Shown here: positions 1,462 through 12,448 of the stretch, piece after piece
How positions within the stretch are numbered: position 1 is the stretch's first letter
Layout of the letters: every line of letters starts with the position of its first letter
IMG/VR virus record: IMGVR_UViG_2648501165_000019
Length of the DNA stretch: 12,448 nt
Reading direction: 5' to 3' (one strand)
DNA from: a virus
Lineage: Duplodnaviria > Heunggongvirae > Uroviricota > Caudoviricetes
The notes under the pieces: model-generated
Database searches by the model: none
The model's input: the letters and a program-made list of their open reading frames with translations, nothing else
What the model was told of the DNA's origin: nothing
Position numbers and translations under genes: made by a program

Positions 1462-1909
1462 ATATGTCCTTTTATCACCACAGCAAGGCAACCCATTGAT
1501 TTAATTAAACAACCCACACTGCAAAAAGTGCTAAAAACAGCAAATTGACTACACCATTAACTACACCGTTCGGTGCACTGTATGAAACAACGTGGAACAA
1601 ATAGACACAAGAAATATACAGGCGGGTAATCTTTCCNNNNNNNNNNNNNCCATAACGGGGCTACCGGATTTTTTTTCCGGTTAACTGTTAATCAGGCTGG
1701 TGGGTTTTACCTGTTCGGTAGGTGTTATGATTATCGTAATACCTTTCCCCCAGTGGGGTAAAAGCTCCAACCGTAACGATGTTCGTTGTGGTTGCCTTGA
1801 TGGTCTGCGTGGTCATTATGACCATTCAGAATATGAAGGGTGACGCTTCCGACTTCCTCAAATTGAGGTTTCCGAAAATATCAGCGGGTTAGCGATTAAT
1901 CTGACCATT

Positions 1910-2024: not shown

Positions 2025-2306
2025 TTACCGCCGCAGCCGTTCCGGCTTCTTCCAGTGGTACGTTATTTTTTCTTTCTCCCGATACAGTTCAACGCGGCGA
2101 TTGTAGGCCAGCATTTCAAGAACGCGGTTCCGTATGTTGCGCATATCAACGCCATTAAGTTCTATACCATCACGGCGCATCACTTCCGCTACAACACGCA
2201 CATAATTTTCAGCGGTCACGCTGTCCGGCTGTGTGGCCTGTTCGTCATGCTGCTGGCTGATTCCGGCGACGCGGCGGATTAATCCCAGTAGTTCGGCTTC
2301 TGTCAT
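2025..2306 (-). CDS. Hypothetical protein (93 aa), last gene of the packaging module
   Basis: ATG at 2306-2304 preceded by a GGGGG Shine-Dalgarno-like run 4 nt upstream; same orientation as terS. No family recognised. Confidence 0.5.
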   Translation of the reverse strand: MTEAELLGLIRRVAGISQQHDEQATQPDSVTAENYVRVVAEVMRRDGIELNGVDMRNIRNRVLEMLAYNRRVELYREKEKITYHWKKPERLRR

Positions 2307-2340
2307 TGTGCCCCCATCGCTCTGATAGTCTGGTGTCGTC

Positions 2341-2545
2341 GGGTCCTTCCTGGAATTATGGCCCGTTACGGGGCGGCGACCTCGCGGTTTTTATCTGTTT
2401 ATGAGAATTTTCCGGCAAAAGTCAGATCCGATCTTCTTCTCTGTAACAGACTGTTTAACAATGAAAATATTAAAAAAAAGAAAGGATCTGACACGAGGCA
2501 TTTTAGCCAGAAAATGCCATTATCAGATCCTTTCTCATTTTTGTT
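2341..2545 (+). other. cos site copy A: complete lambda-type cos with cosQ-like, cosN and cosB-like R3/R2/R1 elements
   Basis: 2341-2370 GGGTCCTTCCTGGAATTATGGCCCGTTACG resembles the lambda right end (GGGTCCTTTCCGGTGATCCGACAGGTTACG). 2371-2382 GGGCGGCGACCT is identical to the lambda 12-nt cohesive end. 2383-2420 CGCGGTTTTTATCTGTTTATGAGAATTTTCCGG parallels lambda CGCGGGTTTTCGCTATTTATGAAAATTTTCCGG. R-like repeats with a GATCC core in direct/inverted/direct order: 2423-2443, 2477-2498, 2524-2543. Inverted repeat GGCATTTTAGCCAGAAAATGCC at 2497-2518. Confidence 0.8.
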
Positions 2546-2562
2546 CAATAATTGCGCGTCTG

Positions 2563-3105
2563 TTACTCGCCTTTCTTCTGTAGCAACTTTTCCGGTACGT
2601 TTCCGGTTGTTTCTTTCAAGTAATCAGCCAGTATCTGTGGGAGGTTGTCGGCAACTCTGGCACTGGCATTACAGGCTTTAACCACTTCCCTTTTAAGCCT
2701 GTCCAGCATGGCGGGGGTAATCTGTGGGAAGCTCCTTTGCATAGTAAGCGGGAGGCTGTCCATGATTGATGAAATCTGACTCGCCAGCTTTGAAAGCGCG
2801 TACAGGCAAAACTCAGTATCAATCACGTCACCGCGATCGCGATCGTTTTTAAGTTCCTGCGCCTCTGCCTGTGCTGTCAGTAATCTGATCCTGACTCGTA
2901 AAAGTTCATCATCGTCAATCTCGCCTTTGTCGTTTATAAGCTGGCTAATTGCATTGTTAACCCTATTTTCTATCACGCTGGCAACATCATAAAACGCCTC
3001 ACGGCCTTTACGCTCAACGGGAGTTACTCCCCACTTGTCGAACGCTGTCGCACTTACACGGCAGCTTTTCGCCATGTTTTTTTTGTTCATCAGATGAGAT
3101 TTCAT
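2563..3105 (-). CDS. terS: Terminase small subunit, lambda Nu1-like (180 aa)
   Basis: Length and sequence parallel lambda Nu1 as recalled, for example RLLTAQAEAQELKNDRDRGDVIDTEFCLYALSKLASQISSIMDSLPLTMQRSFP versus lambda RLTRAQADAQELKNARDSAEVVETAFCTFVLSRIAGEIASILDGLPLSVQRRFP. Lies immediately downstream of cos copy B in the lambda cos-Nu1 arrangement. Start could be Met1 (3105) or Met6 (3090). Confidence 0.85.
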   Translation of the reverse strand: MKSHLMNKKNMAKSCRVSATAFDKWGVTPVERKGREAFYDVASVIENRVNNAISQLINDKGEIDDDELLRVRIRLLTAQAEAQELKNDRDRGDVIDTEFCLYALSKLASQISSIMDSLPLTMQRSFPQITPAMLDRLKREVVKACNASARVADNLPQILADYLKETTGNVPEKLLQKKGE

Positions 3106-3257
3106 TAATACACCAACTTAATTACTGCTTCAGGTTGGTGTATTGCTTGCATCTTTCCCTTTTCATTCATAAAGATAGATCAAACAACAAAACCACCACC
3201 CTGAAAAGGCTCATAAATAGCGAAAATCCGCGAGGTCGCCGCCCCGTAACGGGCCAT
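3106..3257 (-). other. cos site copy B (inverted relative to copy A): cosN plus a short, diverged cosB directly upstream of terS
   Basis: 3228-3257 is the exact reverse complement of 2358-2387 (30/30, ATGGCCCGTTACGGGGCGGCGACCTCGCGG); cosN on the minus strand is 3244-3233. Minus-strand continuation ATTTTCGCTATTTATGAG matches the lambda post-cosN sequence. Further toward terS the lambda-like R elements are replaced by GGTGGTGG (3200-3193), CACCAACC (3140-3133) and GTTGGTG (3117-3111). The position where cosQ would lie is occupied by N10 (3258-3267) and a terminator. Confidence 0.75.
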
Positions 3258-3267
3258 NNNNNNNNNN

Positions 3268-3290
3268 TAAAAAAGCCGGATTTCTCCGGC
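3268..3290 (-). terminator. Rho-independent terminator, copy 1 of a conserved hairpin family
   Basis: Minus strand reads GCCGGAGAAATCCGGC followed by TTTTTT: 6-bp GC-rich stem, GAAA loop, U-tract. Sits 7 nt after the stop of the 137-aa gene. Confidence 0.7.
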
Positions 3291-3296
3291 CTTGTC

Positions 3297-3710
3297 TCAG
3301 ATGGTTTTCAGTATGCGATCGATGTCGCCGTCATCGCCCTGGTTTCTGCCATCGTATGCCATGCCAGCTGATACGGCTTGCGGGCTGTGCATGTCCATAA
3401 AGTTTTCAAAGGCTGCGGTAAGTTCCGGCGCAACCTTCGGACGTTCCTGCTCTATGGTCATGCTAAGGATGCTTTTAGCCGTACCAACATCGATACAAGG
3501 CACGTTTGCCATTGCACGCAACAGCGGCTGATAGTCTTTATGCTCATGAAGCGCCATAATCGCATCAGCGCGCGGCTTGTCCTGCTCTTCCAGTTTGTTT
3601 AGTTGATATACGGCCTCATAGGTTGATAAACCTCTGTCAGCCATTGCCCGCGCTTCGACTTTAAATTTACTCGCCAGCGGTAGCGTCATGATGCTTTCAT
3701 TCGTTGCCAT
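3297..3710 (-). CDS. Hypothetical protein (137 aa) downstream of the decoration gene
   Basis: ATG at 3710-3708 with GGGGG Shine-Dalgarno-like run 4 nt upstream; acidic C-terminal region. No family recognised. Confidence 0.6.
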   Translation of the reverse strand: MATNESIMTLPLASKFKVEARAMADRGLSTYEAVYQLNKLEEQDKPRADAIMALHEHKDYQPLLRAMANVPCIDVGTAKSILSMTIEQERPKVAPELTAAFENFMDMHSPQAVSAGMAYDGRNQGDDGDIDRILKTI

Positions 3711-3722
3711 CGTTCCCCCTGC

Positions 3723-4058
3723 TTATCGGGCCAGCGGCTGAACGGATACGCCGGAACCCGCAAAGGCGGCGCATTTTTTCGCATCGGTGTCGACGCTCTC
3801 AGGCCAGTTAACGGCGGCAATATTGAATATCCCCGTCTTGTAACACTGTGCTGATTTCTGCTTTGACGTGTCCACAGGGTACGAGGTCAGATAAACAGCC
3901 TTGCCAGATTCCTGACCATCCCACGGCTTAAACTCGCCATTGTCTGCCAGCATCAGCGGGGTAAATTCCTGAATAACGCCAGCATCAGCGGCAAAATGTA
4001 CCAACGTCGTGGATACCTGCTGACTGCCTGCAAATAACTCAATGTATGGAGTGTCCAT
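3723..4058 (-). CDS. Head decoration protein, lambda gpD-like (111 aa)
   Basis: TPLMLADNGEFKPWDG, YKTGIFNIAAVNWPE and KKCAAFAGSGVSV parallel lambda gpD TPLMLDTSSRKLVAWDG, YKSGTFRYEDVLWPE and KKRTAFAGTAISIV (recalled). GGGGGG Shine-Dalgarno-like run upstream; start lies 13 nt after the capsid gene stop. Confidence 0.8.
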   Translation of the reverse strand: MDTPYIELFAGSQQVSTTLVHFAADAGVIQEFTPLMLADNGEFKPWDGQESGKAVYLTSYPVDTSKQKSAQCYKTGIFNIAAVNWPESVDTDAKKCAAFAGSGVSVQPLAR

Positions 4059-4070
4059 AGAATCCCCCCG

Positions 4071-5126
4071 TTAACCAATTTTGACGGTAACAAATTTGCG
4101 AATATCTGCCGGTACCGGCTGCGGTGCACTGTGTGTCTGCACGTACTCAATCGCCGGATCGCCGTCCTCAATCCAGTTTTTCGGGTAAAACATGTTTTGT
4201 GTTGCGCCCGTTCTTACCGCTTCCTGATCCATTATCGCACCATAGGCCACCAGCCCTTTATTGTTGGTGTTACCCAGGACCAGCAAATCAGGCTCAAGGA
4301 AATATTTTTCGGTACCATCGCTGTCAGTGTATTTGCCGGAATAGACGATAAGGGCCAGATCACCAAGATAGCCTTTAAAGCTCACCACTTCGCCCAGGTT
4401 TTTACAGGCCAGTTCGGCGGCGGATTCTGAACCACGGGAAAGATCGTACAGCTCACGGAATTTTTTAAAGCTGCGTAATGTGCGCCATACCTCAGCGCCC
4501 ATAATCATGACGTTTGCGGGGCAACCAGCCTGATCAGCATAAAGCTCGATGTCATAGATTGGGTCGTGCATGTCTTTATCCTGCTCGGACCATTTTTTAC
4601 CCTTGGCCTGCTCTATGATGCAGTTTTCCGGTATTTTCCAGTCGATTTCATAGCGTTCTATGCCTTCGCCCTCAATGATGTTTTTTCCGGTCGTTACCGC
4701 ATTCACCGCCAGCCATTCCACGCGTGCCTTAATGGCGTTTATCTGGCGGCGCATGTTGCCAGTAATCAGGCGCATACGGCGATAGGTAGGGTCGTTAAGC
4801 TGTGCCGGATCTTCTCCAGCCATGCGCATGATGGTTTTCGTTGGATCGATTTCGTGCTTTGGCTTCATGTAGCCAGGTTTGATTGTGCTGGTTTCGTACC
4901 CTTTATCGCGCTGAACCTGGCTACCCACCATAGGCGAACAAAACGCCGACATGGTGACTTCTTCAATGTCCAGGGTATCCAGCATGATGTTTTGCGTGCT
5001 GAATGTCGCCACGTTCGGGAAAAACAGCGTGGTAAACAGAGGGCTGAATTTAAAATCCGCAATATCCCCGCGATTCAGGTACATGAAAAGCTGGTTAGTG
5101 TTAAGTGCCGTTGCTTTGCCTGCCAT
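4071..5126 (-). CDS. Major capsid protein, lambda gpE-like (351 aa)
   Basis: Colinear similarity to lambda gpE over the whole length (recalled): PGYMKPKHEIDP vs PGYVKPKHEVNP; DPAQLNDPTYRRMR vs DPQNLADPAYRRRR; FKGYLGDLALIVYSGKYTD vs YKGMYGDVAIVVYSGQYVE; LLVLGNTNNKGLVAYGAIMD vs TMVLGNTQARGLRTYGCIQD; YPKNWIEDGDPAIEY vs YPKNWVTTGDPAREF. Confidence 0.9.
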   Translation of the reverse strand: MAGKATALNTNQLFMYLNRGDIADFKFSPLFTTLFFPNVATFSTQNIMLDTLDIEEVTMSAFCSPMVGSQVQRDKGYETSTIKPGYMKPKHEIDPTKTIMRMAGEDPAQLNDPTYRRMRLITGNMRRQINAIKARVEWLAVNAVTTGKNIIEGEGIERYEIDWKIPENCIIEQAKGKKWSEQDKDMHDPIYDIELYADQAGCPANVMIMGAEVWRTLRSFKKFRELYDLSRGSESAAELACKNLGEVVSFKGYLGDLALIVYSGKYTDSDGTEKYFLEPDLLVLGNTNNKGLVAYGAIMDQEAVRTGATQNMFYPKNWIEDGDPAIEYVQTHSAPQPVPADIRKFVTVKIG

Positions 5127-5365
5127 TATTCACCCCCATAATTTTTATGCATCCCAAGCGCCGCAAGTAAATAAGAGCGTACAAGTGAACCTATCGACGG
5201 CTCCGGCGTCATCAGCGGATCCAGTCCAGCCGCAACGCCAGCTTCATAGTTTTTTTTGTGGCGCTGCTTGAGCACCTCCACGATTTCGGGGCTTATGTAC
5301 ACCGAAACACCGCCTTTTTTCTCTTCAGCCATAGTAAGAAATTCCTCTTCGACTAAAAAAATCAT
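5126..5365 (-). CDS. Small hypothetical protein translationally coupled to the capsid gene (79 aa, or 68 aa from an alternative ATG at 5332)
   Basis: Its stop TAA overlaps the capsid ATG (TAATG). Neither candidate start has a strong ribosome-binding site, so the start is uncertain. No family recognised. Confidence 0.45.
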   Translation of the reverse strand: MIFLVEEEFLTMAEEKKGGVSVYISPEIVEVLKQRHKKNYEAGVAAGLDPLMTPEPSIGSLVRSYLLAALGMHKNYGGE

Positions 5366-5366
5366 A

Positions 5367-5416
5367 ACTGGATGTTTATCCAGTCCTGATTATAATCAGA
5401 ATTGCATTTTATGCAA
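5367..5416 (-). promoter_or_regulatory. Candidate regulated promoter of the head operon: near-consensus sigma70 elements embedded in three adjacent palindromes
   Basis: On the minus strand, -35 TTGCAT (5416-5411), 16-bp spacer, -10 TATAAT (5394-5389). The -35 lies inside palindrome TTGCATTTTATGCAA (5402-5416), the -10 inside CTGATTATAATCAG (5386-5399), and ACTGGAT-GTTT-ATCCAGT (5367-5384) covers the predicted start site. Confidence 0.5.
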
Positions 5417-5496
5417 TGATATTGAGTTATGTTGCAAATTATGAAATGATTATCCCGATCACGAACGCCAGTGCATCCAAAAACCTCATATGCAAA

Positions 5497-5535
5497 AGCC
5501 CGATAAGAACCCTCTGACCTTATCGGGCTTTTTTT
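5497..5535 (+). terminator. Hairpin terminator, possibly bidirectional
   Basis: AGCCCGATAAG, 11-nt loop, CTTATCGGGCT (11-bp stem) followed by TTTTTT on the plus strand. An A-run precedes it, so the minus strand also sees a weaker U-rich tail. Confidence 0.55.
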
Positions 5536-5541
5536 GGGCGC

Positions 5542-5563
5542 AAAAAAGCCGGATTGCTCCGGC
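5542..5563 (-). terminator. Rho-independent terminator, copy 2 of the conserved hairpin family
   Basis: Minus strand GCCGGAGCAATCCGGC followed by TTTTTT; lies after the 74-aa gene. Confidence 0.7.
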
Positions 5564-5583
5564 TATGTGTGCTGTGTGCTGGC

Positions 5584-5808
5584 TCAGTCTCTGATCTCTT
5601 TCAGAAATTCTATCAATGCATCTATCTGTTCAGGATTTACCGCCAGCATTTCACCGGATAGAGCACATCTCACAAAACCATGCTGATCCTTTTCAATCAG
5701 TGCGCCCGTCTCCAGGAATGCGCGGTAATCATTGATGCTCATCGTCTCCATGTTGTCAGCATGGTATTTATCACGCTGTTTTAATATCTCATCAAATTTC
5801 ATCGGCAT
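5584..5808 (-). CDS. Hypothetical protein (74 aa)
   Basis: ATG at 5808-5806 with AGAGGA ribosome-binding site about 8 nt upstream; bracketed by terminator copies 3 and 2. No family recognised. Confidence 0.5.
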   Translation of the reverse strand: MPMKFDEILKQRDKYHADNMETMSINDYRAFLETGALIEKDQHGFVRCALSGEMLAVNPEQIDALIEFLKEIRD

Positions 5809-5903
5809 TGTTTTTTTCCTCTGTTGTGTCTGTTTGTTTCAGATAGTAACTATGCCTGACCGTGACGAAAACCCGGTAATGCGCCATACCGTTTCAACTG
5901 GTG

Positions 5904-5926
5904 CAAAAAAAGCCGGATTTCTCCGG
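5904..5926 (-). terminator. Rho-independent terminator, copy 3 of the conserved hairpin family
   Basis: Minus strand GCCGGAGAAATCCGGC followed by TTTTTTT; lies 9 nt after the stop of the PerC-like gene. Confidence 0.7.
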
Positions 5927-5934
5927 CTGTTTGA

Positions 5935-6207
5935 TTAGCTGTCCTGGTAATTGCGCCATATTTCATCACCAGCACCATCTATACCCATTTCGGCATAAGT
6001 GCGATCGACTGCCTTTTTCAGGTCTCCGAAATTATCCGGCGGCTCCGGTGCCCTCTGTGCCTTCCTTGAACATTCCAGCCGTCGCATCGTGATGTGATGC
6101 CGTTCCTTGTCTGTCTCCACCAGCTGCATGACTTCACCCCATCGCGCCGCCGCCCTCCGGTAAAAGCCTTTCGCCTCCAGTTCCTCCGCTATGCGGTCAT
6201 GTACCAT
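5935..6207 (-). CDS. Small putative transcriptional activator, PerC-like (90 aa from ATG at 6207)
   Basis: The longer frame to 6327 starts with GTG and overlaps the SSB gene. The ATG at 6207 follows the SSB stop with a GGGGGTG ribosome-binding site. Motif AEELEAKGFYRRAAARWGEVM resembles the signature I recall for PerC/Pch regulators; this is from memory and of moderate strength. Confidence 0.45.
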   Translation of the reverse strand: MVHDRIAEELEAKGFYRRAAARWGEVMQLVETDKERHHITMRRLECSRKAQRAPEPPDNFGDLKKAVDRTYAEMGIDGAGDEIWRNYQDS

Positions 6208-6217
6208 CGTCACCCCC

Positions 6218-6628
6218 TCAGAACGAAATATCATCACCGTAAGGGTCATCGCCTCCCGCTGGTGGCTGATTACCCTGTGTGCCTGTGGTTTTGCGTCTGT
6301 TCCCGCCTGGACGTGCCGCGCGGGCACTGATTACGCTGTCTGCGATAACCTGCCAGCCCTGCCGCGTTTCTCCGTTCTGTCCGGTCCACTGGCTTACCTG
6401 CATCGTGCCGGATACGCTGGCAACATCGCCTTTTTGATGTTTAGCCAGGAAGTCGGCCTGTTTGCCAAATGCGATGACCGATAACCATAACGTCGCCTGT
6501 CCGTCCTGTGCCTGGCTGCATGGCAAAGATACCGCCATACGCGCCAGCGTCATCGGTGTGCCCTTGCTGGTCTGTTTTACCTGCGGGTCGTCCACCAGCC
6601 GCCCGTAAGCGGCTATCTGTGCCGTCAT
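6218..6628 (-). CDS. Single-stranded DNA-binding protein (136 aa)
   Basis: OB-fold region parallels E. coli SSB (WLSVIAFGKQADFLAKHQKGDVASVSGTMQVSQWTGQNGETRQGWQVIA vs [50 protein letters not shown]). Gly/Pro-rich linker and acidic C-terminal tail DDPYGDDISF (E. coli SSB ends DDDIPF). ATGA start/stop overlap with the upstream gene. Confidence 0.85.
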   Translation of the reverse strand: MTAQIAAYGRLVDDPQVKQTSKGTPMTLARMAVSLPCSQAQDGQATLWLSVIAFGKQADFLAKHQKGDVASVSGTMQVSQWTGQNGETRQGWQVIADSVISARAARPGGNRRKTTGTQGNQPPAGGDDPYGDDISF

Positions 6629-6876
6629 AATTCCACCTCTCCGGTTTTAACGTTGATGGTTGTTACCTGTTCCGCTTCGGCAATCTCCCGTTCTGTCAGC
6701 GTGGCAAAGTTTGCCGCCGCCGTGGTCATGAATGCGCTTATCAGGTCGGGATGTTCCTTCGCGTATCCTTCCCGCGTGTGGCGGTCTATCGTTCTGATTG
6801 CCACCTTTAAGGTGTGCTCAGTCATGTCTAACGCTTTATATTTTGGCTCTGTTCTGTCTCTGCGTTTTTGGGTCAT
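6625..6876 (-). CDS. Hypothetical protein (83 aa from ATG at 6876)
   Basis: The ORF-track frame extends to 6906 but that start is GTG and lies inside the iteron array. The ATG at 6876 has a GAGG ribosome-binding site 9 nt upstream. Stop overlaps the SSB start (ATGA). Confidence 0.4.
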   Translation of the reverse strand: MTQKRRDRTEPKYKALDMTEHTLKVAIRTIDRHTREGYAKEHPDLISAFMTTAAANFATLTEREIAEAEQVTTINVKTGEVEL

Positions 6877-6885
6877 TTCTCGCAA

Positions 6886-7078
6886 CCTCTCACTTTTTCG
6901 CCTCACTTTTTCAAGCGTCTCACTTCGTCGCAGTTGGGATTTTCGGTTTTTCTATGTGTGTGTTTCATAAGTATTTTTTTACCCCTCACTTTTGAGGATG
7001 TATACAGGTCGAAAAGTGAGGGAGAGCGGGCTAATTTTGGCCCTCTTTCTATCCCCCTCGCTTTTGCTCCTCACTTTT
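6886..7078 (-). repeat. Iteron array, putative replication origin, immediately 3' of the helicase gene
   Basis: Seven copies of a CCTCACTTTT-type decamer: 6889-6897, 6901-6910, 6918-6927, 6984-6993, 7056-7065, 7069-7078, plus one inverted copy at 7011-7024. AT-rich spacer around 6961-6981. Confidence 0.6.
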
Positions 7079-8477
7079 ATAGCGGCGCTACATCATCCCC
7101 ATCGATACGAATAACCCCATCTTTTTCCAGCTTGTACAGCCAGCGCCGGAAGTTTTTCATTTCATACCCCAGCTTTTTCATGTCATCACGTAACAGCGGG
7201 ATCGTGCACTTGTCGCCGTTCTGTGTGCGTGAACGGATGCCCCCCCATAGCGCGGTATGGTTTTTCGTCTTGTTCCCTGCCTCCTCGATGCGCTCCAGTT
7301 CAACAGGAGGGCGCGGATCATCCACCACCACCAGCGACGTGATTAATTCACCGTCAGCGTCGGTAAAAAGCTCCACCACGCGTAAGTCATATGCGGCTTC
7401 TTTGAGTTCCTCCGCGTCCTTCATTTTGGTGCATGAGATAACCAGCGCTTCGCTTCCTGCGTCCTCCCTGCGTATCCGGTATTCAGCATCCAGCGAAGCA
7501 CGAAATGCACTGGAACCGCGCGCGCCTTTCGTCTCATCCTTGCCGGAATGGTGAACCACCAGCACCGTGGCCCCTGTGCGTCGTTTCAGTTCGTCACAAC
7601 CACGGATAAACGCCCCCATATCACGGGAATCATTTTCATCATTCCCACCAAAGCAACGCGCCAGCGTATCCAGAATAATCATGCGTACAGGTTTACCCGT
7701 TTCCCGCTCCACCTGACGGGCAGCGATAACCATTTCATCAACATCAAGCGGGGCAGCCGGAAAGATGGGGCGGTTTACCAGATACAGATTTTTCACCTGC
7801 TCATCGTGCACAACCTCCCAGGCTTTTACACGACGCGGAACACCTATACCGCCTTCACCAACCACATAGAGAACCGCACCATGTGCAACCCTGCGGCCTC
7901 CCCACTGGCGACCAGTGGCAACATGGCACGCCCACGATCCGGCAAGGAATGATTTATAGGACCCGCTAGCCCCGTATATGCTGCATAGCGATACCGCCGG
8001 AATAATCCCCTTAACCACGTAATCCAGTTGCGTGTCGTATCCGGTAGATCCAACGCTCATCGGTAGCGTGGTTTTTCGCTGGTGGTTTTTTTCTTCCGCC
8101 GGCTCTTTCCCGCGCACCCGTTCCAGGTATTCGCGCCAGTTCTCCCGCATATGGCTGTGCATCCCTTCGGGGTAATAATTCGCATCAGTTACACCCGCCG
8201 CCGCCAGCTTGTGCGCAATGGCATTAATATTTGATGGCCTGATGTGGCCTGCCTTGTACAGCCGGACACAATAGCGCCCCTCGTCGATGATTCTCAGGTC
8301 TGCCAGTTCATCCAGTTGATCATCAGCCAGCACAACGGGAGGCACATTATCGCCAGCCAGTCGCCCGTCCTGTTCCTGCCACTGTTTCGCATGTGCCCAG
8401 GCATCACTACCCGCAAAAATAATGACTTCGGTCATCTTGTCGTAAGGCTGTTTTTTTAAGTTCGGTGCGCTTTTCAT
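7077..8477 (-). CDS. Replication protein with RecA-like (RepA/DnaB-type) ATPase domain, putative helicase/initiator (466 aa)
   Basis: Walker A GASGSYKS (aa 169-176), Walker B-like MIILDTLARCFGGNDEND, and VLVVHHSGK motif typical of RepA-like replicative ATPases. N-terminal region of about 160 aa unassigned. AGGGG ribosome-binding site 6 nt upstream; ATGA overlap with the upstream gene. Confidence 0.7.
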   Translation of the reverse strand: MKSAPNLKKQPYDKMTEVIIFAGSDAWAHAKQWQEQDGRLAGDNVPPVVLADDQLDELADLRIIDEGRYCVRLYKAGHIRPSNINAIAHKLAAAGVTDANYYPEGMHSHMRENWREYLERVRGKEPAEEKNHQRKTTLPMSVGSTGYDTQLDYVVKGIIPAVSLCSIYGASGSYKSFLAGSWACHVATGRQWGGRRVAHGAVLYVVGEGGIGVPRRVKAWEVVHDEQVKNLYLVNRPIFPAAPLDVDEMVIAARQVERETGKPVRMIILDTLARCFGGNDENDSRDMGAFIRGCDELKRRTGATVLVVHHSGKDETKGARGSSAFRASLDAEYRIRREDAGSEALVISCTKMKDAEELKEAAYDLRVVELFTDADGELITSLVVVDDPRPPVELERIEEAGNKTKNHTALWGGIRSRTQNGDKCTIPLLRDDMKKLGYEMKNFRRWLYKLEKDGVIRIDGDDVAPL

Positions 8478-8773
8478 TTCTTGCCCCTGAATCCGTTAAC
8501 CATGGTTTTCAGCTTCTGGATGTTTGCCCGTGCCCTGGCGTTGCTGGTGGGCACGTTATGCGGCGCGGTCTGTACCAGAGAAAAATCACGCCGGAACTGA
8601 TAAACAGGCATCACGCAATCATATTCGTAACCTTCACGGCGGTAGGTTACGCGCCGTTCTTCCACGCCCTTAATCATTACCGTGCCGCCGTACTGGTCGC
8701 GGTAAATATCACCGCGCGTAAATTTAGGGTGAGTGTTGCCACTGGCAGTTAAGCCAGAATATTTAAGTTTCAT
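8474..8773 (-). CDS. Hypothetical protein (99 aa)
   Basis: ATG with GGAGAA ribosome-binding site 8 nt upstream; translationally coupled to the helicase gene. No family recognised. Confidence 0.5.
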   Translation of the reverse strand: MKLKYSGLTASGNTHPKFTRGDIYRDQYGGTVMIKGVEERRVTYRREGYEYDCVMPVYQFRRDFSLVQTAPHNVPTSNARARANIQKLKTMVNGFRGKK

Positions 8774-8778
8774 TATTT

Positions 8779-9012
8779 TTATTCTCCGGTGTGCTGTTCT
8801 TTATATCTGTCGTGCAATAGATCTATTTCTTGCAGTTCCATTATTACAGGCTCAAGAAGCGTTATTAATGCCGTGGCAATTCTTGATTTTTGTTTGTCGC
8901 GTTCATTGTCGCCAAGTGTTTCAAGCCATATGCGCAATATTTCCATCATGTTTTCACTGTGAGAAAGTGCAAGAAATGCGCGGTCTATTGTTTGGTGGTA
9001 AATATCACGCAT
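8779..9012 (-). CDS. Hypothetical protein (77 aa)
   Basis: ATG at 9012 with GAGGA ribosome-binding site; overlaps the upstream gene by 8 nt. No family recognised. Confidence 0.5.
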   Translation of the reverse strand: MRDIYHQTIDRAFLALSHSENMMEILRIWLETLGDNERDKQKSRIATALITLLEPVIMELQEIDLLHDRYKEQHTGE

Positions 9013-9469
9013 GGCTTACATCCTCAGGAAATTTTCTTCTATAACGCGCCTCTGCCACATATTCCGCATAATCGGCGGCGATATTCAGTACATCAAGCCC
9101 CGTTGATTTATATTCTCTCGTGGAAAGTAAGAAAAAAGCCGCTCTAATAAGTTCTGGCATTGACGAAAGCGCATCAGCCGCATCATCAGGAACGCCGGAA
9201 AATTCCTGTTTCAGGGAATTAAAACGATCATCACGCATAACCCCCCCATTTTCACAATCAGCAATCAGGATAGCTTTGGCCTCATTCAGCGCCGTATCAG
9301 CACTAAATTGCATGACAGCCAGTGAGTGAGGAACGAAAGCACCGGCATATTCTGTTTCGCTGGTGGCGTGCTTATGTGCCCTGTCCGCGATAACAGAAAT
9401 ATCAATCAGCGCGTGCATCAGCGTTTTGATGGCTTCGGCGGCTGCGTCCGGTGTGGTTTTATTGTGCAT
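9005..9469 (-). CDS. Hypothetical protein (154 aa)
   Basis: ATG at 9469 with AGGGGA ribosome-binding site 6 nt upstream; overlapping gene chain. No family recognised. Confidence 0.55.
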   Translation of the reverse strand: MHNKTTPDAAAEAIKTLMHALIDISVIADRAHKHATSETEYAGAFVPHSLAVMQFSADTALNEAKAILIADCENGGVMRDDRFNSLKQEFSGVPDDAADALSSMPELIRAAFFLLSTREYKSTGLDVLNIAADYAEYVAEARYRRKFPEDVSHA

Positions 9470-9671
9470 AAAGCATCCCCTGAATATTCGTGTTAATCAT
9501 TCCGGCACGTTTTGTGATTTCCTGTAATGATTCCCTTGTGGCGACAATTGCTTCATCTGGTAAGTGGTAATTACACACCACGCGACCTTTATCCACATTG
9601 ACCAGTAGCTGCCCTGTGAATTTCTCACGAAACTGAATGCGGTTAAGGTCAGTAAGTGACAGATTAATCAT
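9459..9671 (-). CDS. Hypothetical protein (70 aa from ATG at 9671)
   Basis: Strong ribosome-binding site AGGAGGT 5 nt upstream of the internal ATG; the longer frame to 9713 lacks one. Overlaps the upstream gene by 8 nt. Confidence 0.5.
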   Translation of the reverse strand: MINLSLTDLNRIQFREKFTGQLLVNVDKGRVVCNYHLPDEAIVATRESLQEITKRAGMINTNIQGMLYAQ

Positions 9672-9861
9672 GGCGCACCTCCTGACGAATACGGGCGGCA
9701 AATACAGCAACACAACCGGACGGGCAACGGTTACGCGCTTCGCGTTCCGTCCAGGCGGTTACGTGGATGATTTGAGATTCTCCGGCACTCAGTGCCAGAA
9801 AACGCCACACAAAGGCCGTTTGTGTGTGTACAAGGTGTGGTATATGATTTACGGCAACCAT
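9664..9861 (-). CDS. Hypothetical small protein (65 aa), first gene of the leftward early operon
   Basis: ATG at 9861 preceded by AGGAG with a 5-nt spacer. It is the 3' part of a long spurious frame (9664-10608) in the ORF track. Contains a CPSGC motif. No family recognised. Confidence 0.45.
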   Translation of the reverse strand: MVAVNHIPHLVHTQTAFVWRFLALSAGESQIIHVTAWTEREARNRCPSGCVAVFAARIRQEVRHD

Positions 9862-9923
9862 AACGGCTCCTAGTTTACGTTGTTGGTTAGACGCCCCGTA
9901 TGTGTTCCCAGCACTGCGGGGCG

Positions 9924-9994
9924 TTGATTTTTGTGTAATGGCAAGTACAATGGTAATTACCATGTAGGTATAGTAATAAAGGGTAATTACCATG
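9924..9994 (+). promoter_or_regulatory. Divergent control region: sigma70-like promoter for the RHH gene with two palindromic operators
   Basis: -35 TTGATT (9924-9929), 16-bp spacer, -10 TACAAT (9946-9951). Operator 1 ATGGTAATTACCAT (9950-9963, perfect 14-bp palindrome) overlaps the -10 and start site. Operator 2 GGTAATTACC (9982-9991) overlaps the RHH start codon. Centre-to-centre spacing is 30 bp. Confidence 0.6.
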
Positions 9995-10165
9995 TCAACA
10001 CCATTAGAAAAACGTTCGCCTCCATACCAAATGCGATTACCGGAAGACTTCAGAGCGCAGCTAGAAGAAGCAGCTAAGGCCGATGGCGACACATCTTTAG
10101 CCACTTGGATTAAACGCGTTCTCCGCAAAGAATTACAGCAACGCGGCATAGAACCCAAAGGATAA
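9992..10165 (+). CDS. Ribbon-helix-helix (Arc/Mnt-like) DNA-binding regulator, 57 aa; not in the supplied ORF track because it is under 60 aa
   Basis: Translation MSTPLEKRSPPYQMRLPEDFRAQLEEAAKADGDTSLATWIKRVLRKELQQRGIEPKG. The segment YQMRLPEDFRAQLEEAAKADGDTSLATWIKRVL fits the Arc-type beta-strand/helix/helix pattern. Divergent from the minus-strand operon and overlapped by the palindromic operators. Confidence 0.65.
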   Translation: MSTPLEKRSPPYQMRLPEDFRAQLEEAAKADGDTSLATWIKRVLRKELQQRGIEPKG

Positions 10166-10207
10166 AAACTATCAGCGCCGTGGTGTGAGGTATTACGGCG
10201 CATTGCT

Positions 10208-10396
10208 ATGCAGGACAACACAATGACCGATAAAGAATTGACCAAAACATTATCACCGGCACGGAAAAGACGGCGCAGAAAGATAGAGCATGAATCAGAA
10301 AGATTCGCGCCATGTGCTTTTGCCCTTGAGCAATTCCTTAAAGAGTACAGGGAAACGCGCCCATTGCAGGTATGGCAACGAACTGAACCAGACTGA
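10208..10396 (+). CDS. Possible small basic protein (62 aa) downstream of the RHH gene; weak call
   Basis: ORF lies between the RHH gene and the plus-strand terminator at 10490-10520. No convincing ribosome-binding site; Arg/Lys-rich centre. Confidence 0.25.
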   Translation: MQDNTMTDKELTKTLSPARKRRRRKIEHESERFAPCAFALEQFLKEYRETRPLQVWQRTEPD

Positions 10397-10489
10397 TAGC
10401 ATTGCCCACCAGCCTGATAGCGGCTATCATCCCCGTGCTTATGTTTGGGATCATATACACATAAGGCGCAGCGGGTTATCTGTTCAGAA

Positions 10490-10520
10490 AGGCGGCTCCA
10501 TTTCGGGGCCGCTTTTTTTA
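10490..10520 (+). terminator. Rho-independent terminator ending the rightward RHH transcript
   Basis: GCGGCTCC, ATTTC loop, GGGGCCGC (8-bp stem with one G-U pair) followed by TTTTTTT. Confidence 0.6.
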
Positions 10521-10665
10521 TGCCTGAAAAACCCCAATTTTGTGGTTTTCCAGTCTCACCAGGGCGAACGAATCCCCGCCCACGTTCTGGCGTATATTCA
10601 ATCTTCATGGTTATAGCTCTGTGTTCAGATGATTGATGTGTGGCGGCTGTGTGCCGCCAGCGTGA

Positions 10666-10854
10666 TTAATGAACTGCCTTGCAGCTATCCTTCCAGGCCA
10701 GAACCTCGGATAAAGACCAGCCAACGGAACGACCGCCAAGTTTACGACGTGATGGGAATTGTCCGGCCTTTTCCAGGCGGTAGCGACACGTACGGCTAAG
10801 GCCGGTTAGTTTTTCGCATTCTTTTTCACGTATAAACCGATCAGTGCTTAACAC
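10666..10854 (-). CDS. alpA: AlpA-family transcriptional regulator / putative excision activator (62 aa)
   Basis: LTGLSRTCRYRLEKAGQFPSRRKLGGRSVGWSLSEVLAW matches the AlpA helix-turn-helix signature as recalled. The start codon is GTG (10854-10852) with an AAGGGGG ribosome-binding site 5 nt upstream. Same orientation as int, as in P4-like and PICI-type elements. Confidence 0.8.
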   Translation of the reverse strand: MLSTDRFIREKECEKLTGLSRTCRYRLEKAGQFPSRRKLGGRSVGWSLSEVLAWKDSCKAVH

Positions 10855-11125
10855 TATTGCCCCCTTTCGTTTCTTAAAGAGTCATCAGGTGTCTTATTGT
10901 GTCGTATTGTTCCCGCTAGAGTGATGAATGGCAAATACTGAGGATGTATGATTTACAGAAAATGAAAAAGTAAGAATAAAATCTTTTAAATTCATGTTAA
11001 TACAAAGGCATAAAATATTGTTCCATGCCTTTTTTCTCGCTCTTTAAAGAGTGATTCGCTAGTGTATAAAAAACCAGTAACACATTAAAAATCAGCTACT
11101 TATAAATCCGTACGCTTTTTCGCCT

Positions 11126-11201
11126 CTTGTTCGTAGTTGTTCCACATTGTTGCTCATTGTTGCACGTTGTATCTGTTCGCATATCCAGTATGCGCATACT
11201 G
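11126..11201 (-). repeat. Helically phased TTGTT repeats plus a 14-bp palindrome in the int-alpA intergenic region
   Basis: TTGTT recurs at roughly 10-bp intervals across 11126-11180 (CTTGTTCGTAGTTGTTCCACATTGTTGCTCATTGTTGCACGTTGT), followed by the perfect palindrome AGTATGCGCATACT at 11188-11201. Confidence 0.5.
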
Positions 11202-11218
11202 AAAAAACACGAAAAAAA

Positions 11219-12448
11219 TTATTTTCTTCTGGCTACTGGTAGCGTGGTTACGTTTTCATGTGTTCCCGCCAGTATCCCTAACCGCTCCGTCCACATATCC
11301 AGCGCATTGCGTTTCGCATCCAGATAACGGGAATGATTATAAACTCGCTGCATTCCTGGCATCTGGTGGCCTGTAAGCTGCTCCACGACATGCGGATCAA
11401 CGCCTAAATCGTTCAGCATGGTTGTAAAGGTGCGCCGGATGTCATGCAGTGACCAGTGAGGGTGATTAAGCCTCCTGTGCGCTAATCTTCCATACTGCGA
11501 TACGCTGGCCTCCTGTTTCACTTCCCCCAGCAATAAGCCCGTGTGCCTGTTCTGCTCCACCAGCTGCGTGATGAACGGCAGTATTGCTTCCGGTATAGGC
11601 CGGAATATGGCTACCTTCGTTTTGCTGTGCTCCTTCGGAACGGTCCAGAGCATTTCGGTAAAATCCCACTCGCTGATCTCCGATAACCTCAGTTCTACCG
11701 TCCGGCATCCGAACACAATCAGGAGGCGGATTAACGCGATGTAGTAGGGGGAGAATATTTTTTTGTCCAGTGCCTGCAATAATTCGCCCAGTTCTTTGGT
11801 GCTTAAGACACGCTCGCTTATATCCGGTTTTTTCCCAACGTCCGCCACACTCATATCATCAAGAACGTTGCTGATTGCATAGCGCCGCCTCCGGCAGAAC
11901 TTAAGCGCCTGTTTGCACGTCTGTAGCAAGAATCCGGCAGTAACAGGCGTTCGCTTTGCCACCTGGTCAAAACAGGCCAGCCAGTGCCGTAGCTCGCATT
12001 TATCCAGCGGCATAGCACCAATGTGCTGTATTACGTGATTATTAAGGCGCTTTTTCAGGGCGGCATAATCCACGCGGTTTTCCTTTGCGTACGACTCAAG
12101 CCAGTAGGTGAGCGCATCGCCAACCGTTACCGGCTTTAACGCTTCCTGTACGGTGTAATTAAGCTCATGACGTGGATTTTTCCCCTCTGCCAGCCATGCG
12201 CGACACTGGGCGGCTTTTTCCCTGGCTGATTTCAGGCTCAGATCAGGATAATTTCCCAGCTTAATGCGTTCCGGTGGTGCCCCCCTTCCCGTTCCGGCCC
12301 TGTAAGTGAAATACCAGGTTAAAAGGCCACTGGTTGAATGCCTGACGCTCAGGTTTCCACCGTCATTAAGAAAGGCTGTTTTTTGGGCGGGTGTGCCGTT
12401 GATTTTCCTCAGCTGTGTATCGCTCAGTTTGTTAAGTGCTCTGCTCAT
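11219..12448 (-). CDS. int: Tyrosine recombinase, P4-type integrase (409 aa); start codon is the last three bases of the window
   Basis: C-terminal catalytic region with HDIRRTFTT, LTGH and RVYNHSRY (candidate catalytic Tyr). N-terminal region with the DGG...W.F.YR pattern of P4-type arm-binding domains. Confidence 0.9.
   Translation of the reverse strand: MSRALNKLSDTQLRKINGTPAQKTAFLNDGGNLSVRHSTSGLLTWYFTYRAGTGRGAPPERIKLGNYPDLSLKSAREKAAQCRAWLAEGKNPRHELNYTVQEALKPVTVGDALTYWLESYAKENRVDYAALKKRLNNHVIQHIGAMPLDKCELRHWLACFDQVAKRTPVTAGFLLQTCKQALKFCRRRRYAISNVLDDMSVADVGKKPDISERVLSTKELGELLQALDKKIFSPYYIALIRLLIVFGCRTVELRLSEISEWDFTEMLWTVPKEHSKTKVAIFRPIPEAILPFITQLVEQNRHTGLLLGEVKQEASVSQYGRLAHRRLNHPHWSLHDIRRTFTTMLNDLGVDPHVVEQLTGHQMPGMQRVYNHSRYLDAKRNALDMWTERLGILAGTHENVTTLPVARRK

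Follow-up and report, generated by a model that had tools for sequence, protein, structure and literature searches.

Several described phage satellites bear on the locus analysed here. First, EcCICFT073 is the prototype Gram-negative cos PICI; lambda, phi80 and a resident prophage can each induce it and bring about its transfer via its cos sites (PMC6092414, PMC6739421). Its alpA is induced in a helper-dependent manner, the role of AlpA in induction having been demonstrated (PMC6092414); it carries a replication module with an origin, and it requires the helper terS, the helper TerS being retargeted by Rpp (PMC6739421). Of its cos sites, that upstream of rpp, with the same orientation, is essential. 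Second, the cf-PICI EcCIEDL933 (Sp7, CP-933C or O-island 51 of O157:H7 Sakai and EDL933), likewise induced in an AlpA-dependent manner, forms its own small capsids and needs tails only; its complete head/packaging module of 15.4-15.5 kb comprises an HK97-family capsid protein, protease, portal, connectors, HNH, TerS and TerL. Finally, the SaPIs, a lineage unrelated in sequence, include TerS-encoding pac elements, whose TerS redirects the helper TerL, and cos elements such as SaPIbov5, which carry a helper cos site and sometimes a capsid-protein homologue such as Ccm.

The window, i.e., the whole 12,448-nucleotide stretch of DNA analysed (IMG/VR record IMGVR_UViG_2648501165_000019), consists of phoQ followed by an 11.2-kb island (Table 1). 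This block is a genuine helper-dependent phage satellite, the E. coli PICI EcCIRM12579, already catalogued in Table S1 of Fillol-Salom et al. 2018 (PMC6092414) as an 11.2-kb element at ycfD-phoQ with att GGACATATTT and the accessory genes rgdR and perC. The same table lists this island also for O157:H7 EC4115/TW14359 and O145:H28 strains, and EcCIRM12579 is a catalogue entry only, without experimental study. The original prediction, a compact satellite in need of a lambdoid helper, was right but not new, because EcCIRM12579 had already been published; the possibility it left open of an undescribed family is closed, since the family, E/D-type genes and two cos sites included, was described in 2018-2019. 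Almost all the features that the prediction named occur in the window. The whole block is 99.7-99.8% identical to O55:H7 and O157:H7 E. coli genomes, with 99.7% identity to RM12579 (NC_017656.1) over the whole queried block. Differences from EcCIRM12579 are at strain level only; for example, cos1 has a (GGT)n run in its cosB whose length is not that found in CB9615. We estimate at about 90% the probability that the locus represents the EcCICFT073 family of Gram-negative PICIs in complete and intact form, essentially as EcCIRM12579, with a P4-type integrase, the roxA (ycfD)-phoQ attachment site and the life cycle proposed below.

In near-identical E. coli genomes, the genes on either side of the island are phoQ and roxA (ycfD), and no TerL, portal, tail or lysis gene follows beyond it. 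A full prophage extending past the window is excluded because the integrase directly precedes roxA in these genomes, as in CB9615. The start of the island, first placed at 2025, is in fact the left att core, located by comparing the empty site of K-12 and the right junction of CB9615; it is the reverse complement of the published core (Table S1, PMC6092414). The att core forms a direct repeat with a spacing of 11,213 nt (locus L001), whose right-hand copy lies about 190 nt past the window; the integrase start codon is at the window edge. Two copies of a 75-nt repeat (8044-8118 and 19024-19098 in L001) are probably integrase arm sites. Two N runs in the window hide 51 nt (1638-1650) and 18 nt (3259-3268), the latter masking the cosQ of cos1.

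Table 1. Features of the window, in order of position.
Feature	Coordinates	Strand	Evidence or remark
phoQ	1..1461	+	Chromosomal flank outside the island; ORF; phoQ annotation in CB9615, CFT073 and K-12
Left att core AAATATGTCC	1460..1469	+	Overlaps phoQ stop codon
Arm-type repeat, 75 nt	1543..1617	+	Second copy 76% identical, adjoins integrase start beyond the window
ORF93, final island gene	2025..2306	-	Conserved; phrog_1561 E 3e-58
cos2 (cosQ and cosN)	2340..2387	+	Exact 23-nt core; aligned with lambda cos
cosB of cos2	2388..2560	+	Lambda-like layout: R3, IHF-site region, R2, R1
Nu1-type TerS, full length	2563..3105	-	Pfam Phage_Nu1 E 3e-23
cos1 (cosN 3228-3250 and cosQ)	3228..3268	-	Upstream of TerS, same orientation
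Terminator-like hairpin GCCGGAGAAATCCGGCTTTTTT	3269..3290	-	3 matches, 0 expected; others at 5542-5563 and 5906-5927
ORF137 (c1501 of EcCICFT073)	3297..3710	-	phrog_1999 E 4e-67, phrog_53 E 6e-9
Lambda D-like decoration protein (c1500)	3723..4058	-	Pfam HDPD E 5e-18
Lambda E-like major capsid protein (c1499)	4071..5126	-	Pfam Phage_cap_E E 5.5e-50
Small conserved ORF, 68 aa (RefSeq)	5126..5332	-	Just upstream of capsid gene; phrog_3255
ORF74	5584..5808	-	phrog_1957
PerC-family regulator	5935..6207	-	Pfam PerC E 1e-42; RefSeq boundaries
SSB, single-strand DNA-binding protein	6218..6628	-	Pfam SSB E 2e-16
Replication origin, AAGTGAGR iterons	6888..7076	.	Two sets around AT-rich stretch, directly 3' of helicase gene
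RepA-family helicase/initiator (RecA fold)	7077..8477	-	AAA_25 E 2e-43
RgdR (DUF4222, RGD motif)	8474..8773	-	Pfam DUF4222 E 1.6e-24
Small early ORFs (77, 154, 84 aa) and Icd-like gene	8779..9860	-	Icd-like about 9663-9860
Divergent control region	9924..9998	.	Back-to-back promoter-like sites, two palindromic operators
Oppositely oriented pair ORF57 and ORF62	9992..10396	+	ORF57 9992-10165, ORF62 10208-10396
AlpA activator	10666..10854	-	E 5e-17
P4-type tyrosine integrase	11219..12448	-	Arm-DNA-bind_3 E 5e-18, Phage_integrase E 1.5e-16

The backbone is that of EcCICFT073, with which the island has in common its att site, its gene order and the same pair of inverted lambda-type cosQ/cosN sites; eight proteins are 88-98% identical, i.e., integrase (97%), AlpA (94%), RgdR (93%, C1493 of CFT073), SSB (98%), capsid, decoration, ORF137 and ORF93 (88%; dN/dS 0.15). 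With EcCIEDL933 it shares the att site, int, RgdR, SSB, PchE and the last ORF, ORF93 being also the final gene of Sakai Sp7. A P4-type integrase, AlpA (P4 ORF88-like), an Icd-like gene and helper dependence are common to the island and P4, from which it differs by its replication protein and by cos sites of lambda rather than P2 type. As anticipated for Sid and Psu, no family search of the island proteins matched Sid, Psu or Delta.

The replication module called originally is present. Six AAGTGAGR iterons occur within the origin against 0.56 expected, a number reached in 0 of 200 shuffles, and the layout is that described for Gram-negative PICI origins (PMC6092414); EcCICFT073 has an origin of the same kind, its iterons directly adjoining the 3' side of the replication gene. 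Its primase is replaced here by a RepA-type helicase, the N-terminal 122 aa of which are 62% identical to the EcCICFT073 replication protein. The expected RHH switch is represented by the Arc/RHH-like ORF57 (PHROG 228 'Arc-like repressor', E 1.5e-6) with two palindromic operators, ATGGTAATTACCAT, at 9950-9963 and 9981-9994, the second overlapping the ORF57 ATG. ORF57 also matches YlcI/YnfO at E 1.4e-3, below the family cut-off, and CFT073 has a YlcI/YnfO-family gene at the position of the ORF57/ORF62 pair; ORF62 is 96% identical to a 57-aa CFT073 protein. RgdR, a regulator of type III secretion and motility (PMC3378721, PMC10877973), and the PerC homologue, which corresponds in family and position to pchE of Sakai Sp7, are accessory host regulators.

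It is extremely improbable that the island is a decaying cryptic prophage remnant, even though the occupant of the site in EDL933 and Sakai (CP-933C/Sp7) was formerly annotated as a degraded P4-like prophage (PMC3378721). The one Icd-like segment that PGAP calls a pseudogene lies antisense to a conserved small regulator gene pair. The 11.2-kb architecture is constant across hundreds of genomes, at least 80% of the block being found in 362, and purifying selection acts on int, alpA and SSB (dN/dS 0.05-0.08) as well as on the E-like (0.13) and D-like (0.15) genes. Att repeats, origin, cos sites and regulators are all intact, and the sibling with 88-98% protein identity is mobile by experiment.

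Both predicted cos sites hold an exact 23-nt lambda cosN core (0 expected), at 2365-2387 (+) and in inverted orientation at 3228-3250 (-), and they share a 76-nt inverted repeat. Their cosQ/cosN are nearly identical to those of lambda, the cohesive-end sequence of cos2 being GGGCGGCGACCT (2371-2382). The cosB of cos2 carries three R sites of the form TCAGATCC(G/T)(A/T)TCT at 2422-2434 (+), 2479-2491 (-) and 2523-2535 (+). Counted from the cohesive end, R3 occupies bp 52-64, within the range canonical for lambda (bp 48-65; PMC9026076), whereas the R-site sequence differs, CAGATCC in the island and CGTTTCC in lambda; no close match to this cosB was found among phages of the collection searched.

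Between the cos sites, EcCICFT073 has rppA and its cosB, whereas the island has a full-length Nu1-type TerS, at the rppA position, and a lambda-style R3-I1-R2-R1 cosB. This TerS, correctly called Nu1-like, is 36% identical to lambda Nu1 (residues 6-166 against 3-180); the C-terminal half is conserved, whereas the N-terminal part, which binds DNA, has diverged. Its nearest phage relative is N15 gp1 (44%), no phage TerS exceeding 44%. Its identity as an Rpp was considered and rejected, as it has no PDB match to RppC whereas RppA matches RppC at E 5e-31. We infer that the R sites of the island itself (TCAGATCC...) are recognised by the N-terminal domain of this TerS and that the conserved C-terminal half brings in the helper TerL, following the logic of TerS-encoding SaPIs, whose TerS is of pac type; with only 36-44% identity to phage TerS, its fit with the TerL of a given helper is assumed. 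Which cos site serves in the island is uncertain, because the cosB of cos2, which bears the R sites, runs toward the TerS gene from its 3' side, contrary to the arrangement in lambda, and the sibling relies on the site that precedes rpp in the same orientation. In 2018, two E. coli islands encoding a TerS of this or another type (from IHE3034 and 18098) showed no transfer from their native strains. As marks of candidate helpers, lambda-type cosQ/cosN occur in 4629 of 5426 genomes, at 5-9 places in those that bear the island.

Compared with EcCIEDL933, the head/packaging genes here are limited to the E-like, D-like, Nu3-C-terminal-like and TerS genes. Those for TerL, portal, protease, tail and lysis are absent from the window according to the ORF list and Pfam searches, as originally stated, and neither Pfam searches of the window nor the annotation of near-identical genomes yielded portal, protease, head-completion or TerL genes. 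Relative to lambda, the island lacks A, W, B, the protease, FI, FII, tail and lysis genes, E precedes D, and cos is present as two inverted sites. The E-like and D-like assignments both hold: the capsid protein is 43% identical to lambda E, full length relative to it, and 96.6% identical to the CFT073 protein, and the decoration protein is 35.5% identical to lambda D and 98% to the CFT073 protein. The contrast drawn with HK97 stands for the sequence family but not beyond it. The crystal structure of a near-identical protein is available as PDB 3BQW, which the capsid protein matches at E 9e-232. The original claim that a scaffold is missing does not strictly hold because ORF137, judged from its profile matches, shares homology with the lambda Nu3/gpC scaffold, namely with its C-terminal domain: lambda Nu3 residues 117-200 match phrog_1999 at E 2.7e-26, as do residues 365-501 of the gpC-like protein of CFT073 prophage 4 (E 1.5e-68), with whose C-terminus ORF137 is 37% identical over 83 aa. 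Its counterpart c1501 has a length of 137 aa.

These genes raise the question of whether the island builds or co-assembles its own shell, its E-, D- and Nu3-like proteins forming, with its natural helper, satellite heads that are possibly smaller; the original prediction implied head building by the E/D genes. The three genes are conserved and intact, and 598 genomes carry the E/D pair at full length; Sakai and EDL933 bear a complete capsid module at the same att site on a shared backbone, and in SaPIbov5 (Ccm) and PmCI172 capsid homologues are tied to small heads. We nevertheless consider such a shell quite unlikely. The portal, protease, head-completion and TerL genes are lacking, EcCICFT073 with lambda packaged phage-sized DNA only, deletion of c1499 or c1500 left both interference and transfer unchanged, and transfer frequency remained high with tetA inserted in c1501. 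Ccm causes small capsids, whereas the E. coli sibling shows no change of size. The three genes are conserved and, in the sibling and with the helpers tested, dispensable for transfer and interference. Such conservation, with purifying selection on the E- and D-like genes and no effect seen with lambda or with the prophages resident in CFT073, could also mean that they are tools of interference or host range rather than building blocks. They would then disrupt or alter head assembly in certain phages other than those tried so far, or permit the use of helpers with incompatible capsid or decoration proteins. Several interference functions per PICI are common, but the interference of the sibling against lambda maps wholly to rppA and no known defence-system model was matched (ORF137 being the sole protein of the module scanned); we consider this role unlikely.

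For the island as a classical PICI, we propose the following life cycle. A lambdoid helper, induced or infecting, would turn on alpA, as shown in the sibling. The island would then excise and replicate from its own origin by means of its RepA-type helicase, iterons and SSB. The resulting concatemer would be cut at the lambda-type cosN by the helper TerL, and the DNA would enter helper-made heads and tails as multimers, four island copies amounting to 44.9 kb, i.e., 92% of the lambda genome. Packaging recognition would be the island-specific step, ensured here by its own Nu1-type TerS and in EcCICFT073 by the retargeting of the helper TerS by Rpp. Should the island instead form its own shell, the portal and protease of the helper would be used, with the island TerS directing packaging, and the island would stand midway between the classical and the capsid-forming PICIs.

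The island beside phoQ is the published PICI EcCIRM12579, which supports the helper-dependent satellite put forward in the original prediction. The block matches at full length, with 99.7-99.8% identity, loci in E. coli O55:H7, O157:H7 and related genomes. The match in strain RM12579 (99.7% identity, 100% coverage) is the EcCIRM12579 locus itself, listed in Table S1 of Fillol-Salom et al. (2018, ISME J, PMC6092414) as O55:H7 RM12579, NC_017656.1 1438155-1449376, 11.2 kb, with the att sequence GGACATATTT, integration at ycfD-phoQ and the accessory genes rdgR and perC. The same island is catalogued for O157:H7 EC4115/TW14359, O145:H28 strains and CB9615 (PMC6092414 supplement). A [quoted passage not shown] as well as "two cosN sequences" are already mentioned in PMC6092414; the element and its family, lambda E/D-type genes and double cos included, are already known, having been published in 2018-2019.

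Comparison with related genomes, which had been suggested as a check on the att sites, revealed the direct repeats that bound the island. Set against the empty K-12 site and the right junction, the att core is AAATATGTCC at 1460-1469, overlapping the phoQ stop codon, and its published form is GGACATATTT. A second copy lies 11,213 nt away in the 99.7%-identical locus of O55:H7 strain CB9615, the right copy being outside the window. The start proposed at 2025 must therefore be moved about 560 nt upstream, and the island ends about 190 nt past the window. In CB9615, phoQ flanks one side, and on the other roxA (ycfD), pepT and potABCD come straight after the integrase. A full prophage continuing past the window would place terminase, portal and tail genes beyond the integrase; these are absent and roxA is found there instead, which rules out this alternative. 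The tRNA scan of the window found no tRNA gene, hence the att site is not one. The 75-nt direct repeats just inside the island ends both contain ACTACACC(A/G)TTAACTACACCG and are probably integrase arm-binding sites.

The stretch of about 560 nt beside the att core (1462-2024) carries no annotated gene and is partly conserved in CFT073; a search of Rfam at gathering thresholds detected no RNA family anywhere in the window, this stretch before ORF93 included. Runs of N at 1638-1650 and 3259-3268 stand for 51 and 18 nt, respectively, present in CB9615 and CFT073, and the second run covers cosQ at the cos site lying upstream of terS.

Features of the island and its surroundings, with amino acid identity to the sibling island EcCICFT073 where available
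Feature	Window position	Strand	Identity to EcCICFT073	Remark
phoQ	1-1461	+		nearly all other window genes on minus strand
75-nt direct repeats	1543-1617 (other copy: CB9615 locus L001, 19024-19098)			76% identical; inside each island end
45-aa ORF	1688-1825	-		within stretch 1462-2024, which has no annotated gene
ORF93			88%	
Nu1-family small terminase subunit (TerS)	2563-3105			family search
Terminator-like hairpins GCCGGAG(A/C)AATCCGGCTTTTTT	3269-3290, 5542-5563, 5906-5927	-		three, near-identical; follow ORF137, ORF74 and the PerC gene
ORF137 (c1501)	3297-3710	-	97%	downstream of D-like gene; phrog_1999, E 4e-67
Lambda D-family decoration protein	3723-4058		98%	family search
Lambda E-family major capsid protein	4071-5126		96.6%	family search
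SSB	6218-6628		98%	family search
RepA/RecA-fold AAA_25 helicase	7077-8477			family search
Control region	9924-9998			between Icd-like early operon and oppositely oriented ORF57/ORF62 pair
AlpA	10666-10854		94%	family search
P4-type tyrosine integrase	11219-12448		97%	family search
RgdR			93%	

Family searches bore out the predicted gene list (integrase, AlpA, helicase, SSB, TerS, E-like and D-like proteins), and DUF4222 and PerC-family proteins are also encoded in the block. Both cos sites were recovered as well, the cosN core occurring twice, together with six AAGTGAGR iterons, where 0.56 would be expected across the window; all six fall within the 190 nt adjoining the 3' end of the helicase gene, arranged as two sets flanking an AT-rich stretch. 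Taken with the features listed for Gram-negative PICIs in PMC6092414, the island is a discrete element of the 10-15 kb class bounded by att direct repeats and inserted at roxA/ycfD-phoQ, a PICI-specific integration site; it has an integrase and an AlpA-family activator at one end with genes mostly in one direction, an AAA_25 helicase with iterons, and lambda-type cosQ/cosN with its own TerS as expected of borrowed packaging. Neither lysis nor tail genes nor a complete head/packaging set appeared among its ORFs, in the family searches or in the CB9615 annotation.

Other classes of element are ruled out on gene content or conservation. A P4-like satellite would carry Sid, Psu, Delta or Epsilon, and no such families emerged from Pfam, PHROG and NCBIfam scans; moreover, the cos sites are lambda-type, not P2-type. 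Capsid-forming PICIs are defined by the presence of major capsid, protease, portal, head-tail connectors, HNH, TerS and TerL genes together, of which module this island has only E-like, D-like, Nu3-C-terminal-like and TerS genes. A defective lambdoid prophage, which would show decay and variable truncation, is excluded by the uniform architecture (at least 80% of the block is present in 362 genomes), by purifying selection on the int, alpA, SSB, E-like and D-like genes and by the intact att, origin and cos sequences. PADLOC, applied to ten proteins (nine hypothetical ORFs and the helicase), returned no defence-system match.

A divergent control region with back-to-back promoter-like sites lies at 9924-9998. 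Two ATGGTAATTACCAT palindromes at 9950-9963 and 9981-9994, the second overlapping the ORF57 start codon, are likely operators. ORF57 resembles Arc/RHH regulators (PHROG 228, E 1.5e-6; YlcI/YnfO matched weakly), and its partner ORF62 is 96% identical to a CFT073 protein; the RHH switch of the original prediction would fit ORF57 and this operator layout. A generic promoter/terminator scan reported little beyond the promoter pair and missed the repeated hairpins, which divide the late half of the island into units. The 314-aa ORF at 9664-10608(-) was rejected as a real protein, only its C-terminal ~50 residues being Icd-like and the rest antisense to ORF57/ORF62; in PGAP a portion is marked as an Icd-like pseudogene, and its Sakai equivalent was formerly annotated as a 247-aa protein. 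The 154-aa ORF at 9005-9469(-) corresponds to two separate genes (~73-79 aa each) in CB9615 and CFT073, and a PHROG family spans the fused form end to end.

The packaging region is one place where the island departs from its prototype. The 23-nt lambda cosN core GTTACGGGGCGGCGACCTCGCGG occurs twice in inverted orientation, at 2365-2387(+) and 3228-3250(-), none being expected by chance. The ~840 nt between these cores differ from EcCICFT073, and identity resumes exactly at the cos cores. Positions 2388-3227, comprising terS or rppA and both cosB regions, are swapped as one unit between islands otherwise 88-98% identical. On this comparison, the segment between the two inverted cos sites appears to behave as an exchangeable specificity module. 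Where EcCICFT073 has rppA, the present island encodes a 180-aa protein that aligns from end to end with lambda Nu1 at 36% identity. Conservation is seen in the central and C-terminal part, described in the literature as the part of Nu1 that binds the large subunit; the N-terminal winged-helix part has diverged. Rpp proteins, by comparison, are 139-154 aa long, lack a TerL-binding tail and retarget the helper TerS. A PDB sequence search with the island TerS gave no significant match, and none to RppC at E up to 1, which rules out close kinship to RppC; RppA matches RppC at E 5e-31. An Rpp-type cos PICI is thus excluded, the 180-aa protein aligning with Nu1 at full length. Among a 50,697-record collection, no phage TerS was more than 44% identical to that of the island, the best being N15 gp1.

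The cosB of the site cos2 (core at 2365-2387) carries three TCAGATCC(G/T)(A/T)TCT sites at 2422-2434(+), 2479-2491(-) and 2523-2535(+). Its layout is that of lambda, with R3 at bp 52-64 from the cohesive end, the canonical lambda position, and an A/T-rich stretch among the R-like sites where lambda has its IHF site. No close match to this cosB was found among phages. Given a Nu1-like TerS with a conserved C-terminal half and this lambda-style cosB, packaging may be SaPI-like: the island TerS would read island-specific R sites and recruit the helper TerL to the shared cosN. Oddly, the R-site-bearing cosB points into the 3' end of terS, and no such R repeats accompany the other cos site, which lies upstream of terS, shares its orientation and is the counterpart of cos1, the site essential in EcCICFT073. 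In the cosB of this upstream site, at ~3190-3200, the (GGT)n run varies in length (GGTGGTGG vs GGTGGTGGTGGTGG in CB9615); the complementary CACCACCACCAC lies near there in EcCICFT073 cos1, within the segment put forward as the R3 site of Rpp. An 11-nt inverted repeat, AATACACCAAC ... GTTGGTGTATT, occupies 3107-3144, immediately upstream of the terS start codon. Of 5426 complete E. coli genomes, 766 have terS and 97 have rppA by megablast at roughly ≥85% identity, a threshold that the more divergent rppC would escape; the Nu1-type variant of packaging is the commoner of the two by this measure.

EcCICFT073, which serves as a model system, occupies the same att site, and the eight of its proteins given in the table are 88-98% identical to those of the window island. 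For this sibling only, helper-dependent induction, high-frequency transfer and helper interference were shown (PMC6092414, PMC6739421). Its alpA is induced by a helper (lambda, phi80 or CFT073 prophage 4), and both induction and transfer depend on AlpA; the island has a working replication gene and origin, and transfer needs the cos sites and the helper terS (PMC6092414). Rpp (c1503) is responsible for both interference and preferential packaging, forming with the helper TerS a heterocomplex that is retargeted to the island cosB at cos1 (PMC6739421; discussed by Murialdo and Feiss 2022). The replication proteins differ, EcCICFT073 having a 584-aa primase and the window island a 466-aa RepA-type helicase, the two being related only over the first 122 residues (62% identity). 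All packaged DNA of EcCICFT073 is phage-sized, indicating that multimers fill normal heads. Lambda packaging is limited to ~78-105% of genome length. We expect tetramers in a lambda-sized head, since four island copies amount to 44,852 bp (92% of lambda's 48,502 bp) and three to only 33.6 kb. Skipping of two cos sites is spoken of in the 2018 paper (PMC6092414). Lambda-type cosQ/cosN is present in 4629 of 5426 E. coli genomes, with 5-9 such places in island-bearing ones, so candidate helpers are usually resident.

In Sakai and EDL933, the same att site holds a different element, Sp7/CP-933C/O-island 51, the capsid-forming PICI EcCIEDL933. It has int, RgdR, SSB, PchE and the last ORF in common with the window island and differs in having a full set of HK97-family head and terminase genes (Sakai locus L007, 2212-17672). 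The site thus accommodates a single backbone on which replication, packaging and head modules can be exchanged. Where the RgdR literature speaks of "O-island 51", it means another module variant than the island described here. RgdR is the DUF4222 protein and has been characterised as regulating type III secretion and motility, and the PerC homologue agrees in family and position with pchE of Sakai Sp7; both accessory genes are known EHEC virulence regulators.

Finally, the head genes include a member that the original prediction had not recognized when it stated that no scaffold or protease was encoded. Besides its phrog_1999 match, ORF137 matches the C-terminal end of a gpC-type "head maturation protease" profile (E 6e-9). 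The same phrog_1999 is matched by residues 117-200 of lambda Nu3 (E 2.7e-26) and by residues 365-501 of the gpC-like protein of CFT073 prophage 4 (E 1.5e-68), with whose C-terminus ORF137 shares 37% identity over 83 residues (BLAST). By these profile and BLAST matches ORF137, annotated as hypothetical or "head-tail connector", is homologous to the last ~85 residues of the lambda Nu3/gpC scaffold. The island therefore encodes this C-terminal part as a separate protein, which lacks the protease domain. Large protein searches recovered almost only close E. coli copies of ORF137, the single remote match (P0041, 195 aa) being itself Nu3-like; a PDB search found nothing, and an AlphaFold2 model from a shallow alignment is all helical with low confidence (pLDDT 45.6). 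The NCBI name "phage head-tail connector protein", attached to some copies, was not reproduced in Pfam, NCBIfam or PHROGs.

The E/D pair is present at full length in 598 genomes, and a crystal structure exists for a near-identical homologue of the capsid protein (PDB 3BQW). Compared with CFT073, dN/dS is 0.13 for the E-like and 0.15 for the D-like gene, denoting purifying selection, and 0.55 for ORF137, a value drawn from ten substitutions only. In EcCICFT073, deletion of c1499 or c1500 left interference and transfer unchanged with the helpers tried, and the tetA marker of high-frequency transfer was placed in c1501, the 137-aa gene (PMC6092414). We consider it rather improbable that the E-like, D-like and Nu3-C-terminal-like trio, with the island TerS and cosB, would constitute a working partial head module with a natural helper other than lambda or phi80, assembling satellite-specific or chimeric shells on helper portals. 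Reading ORF137 as a Nu3 C-terminal homologue brings the role of the E/D-type genes in these islands into sharper focus. Were such a module to operate, the island would be a functional intermediate between classical and capsid-forming PICIs, at the same att site and on a common backbone.
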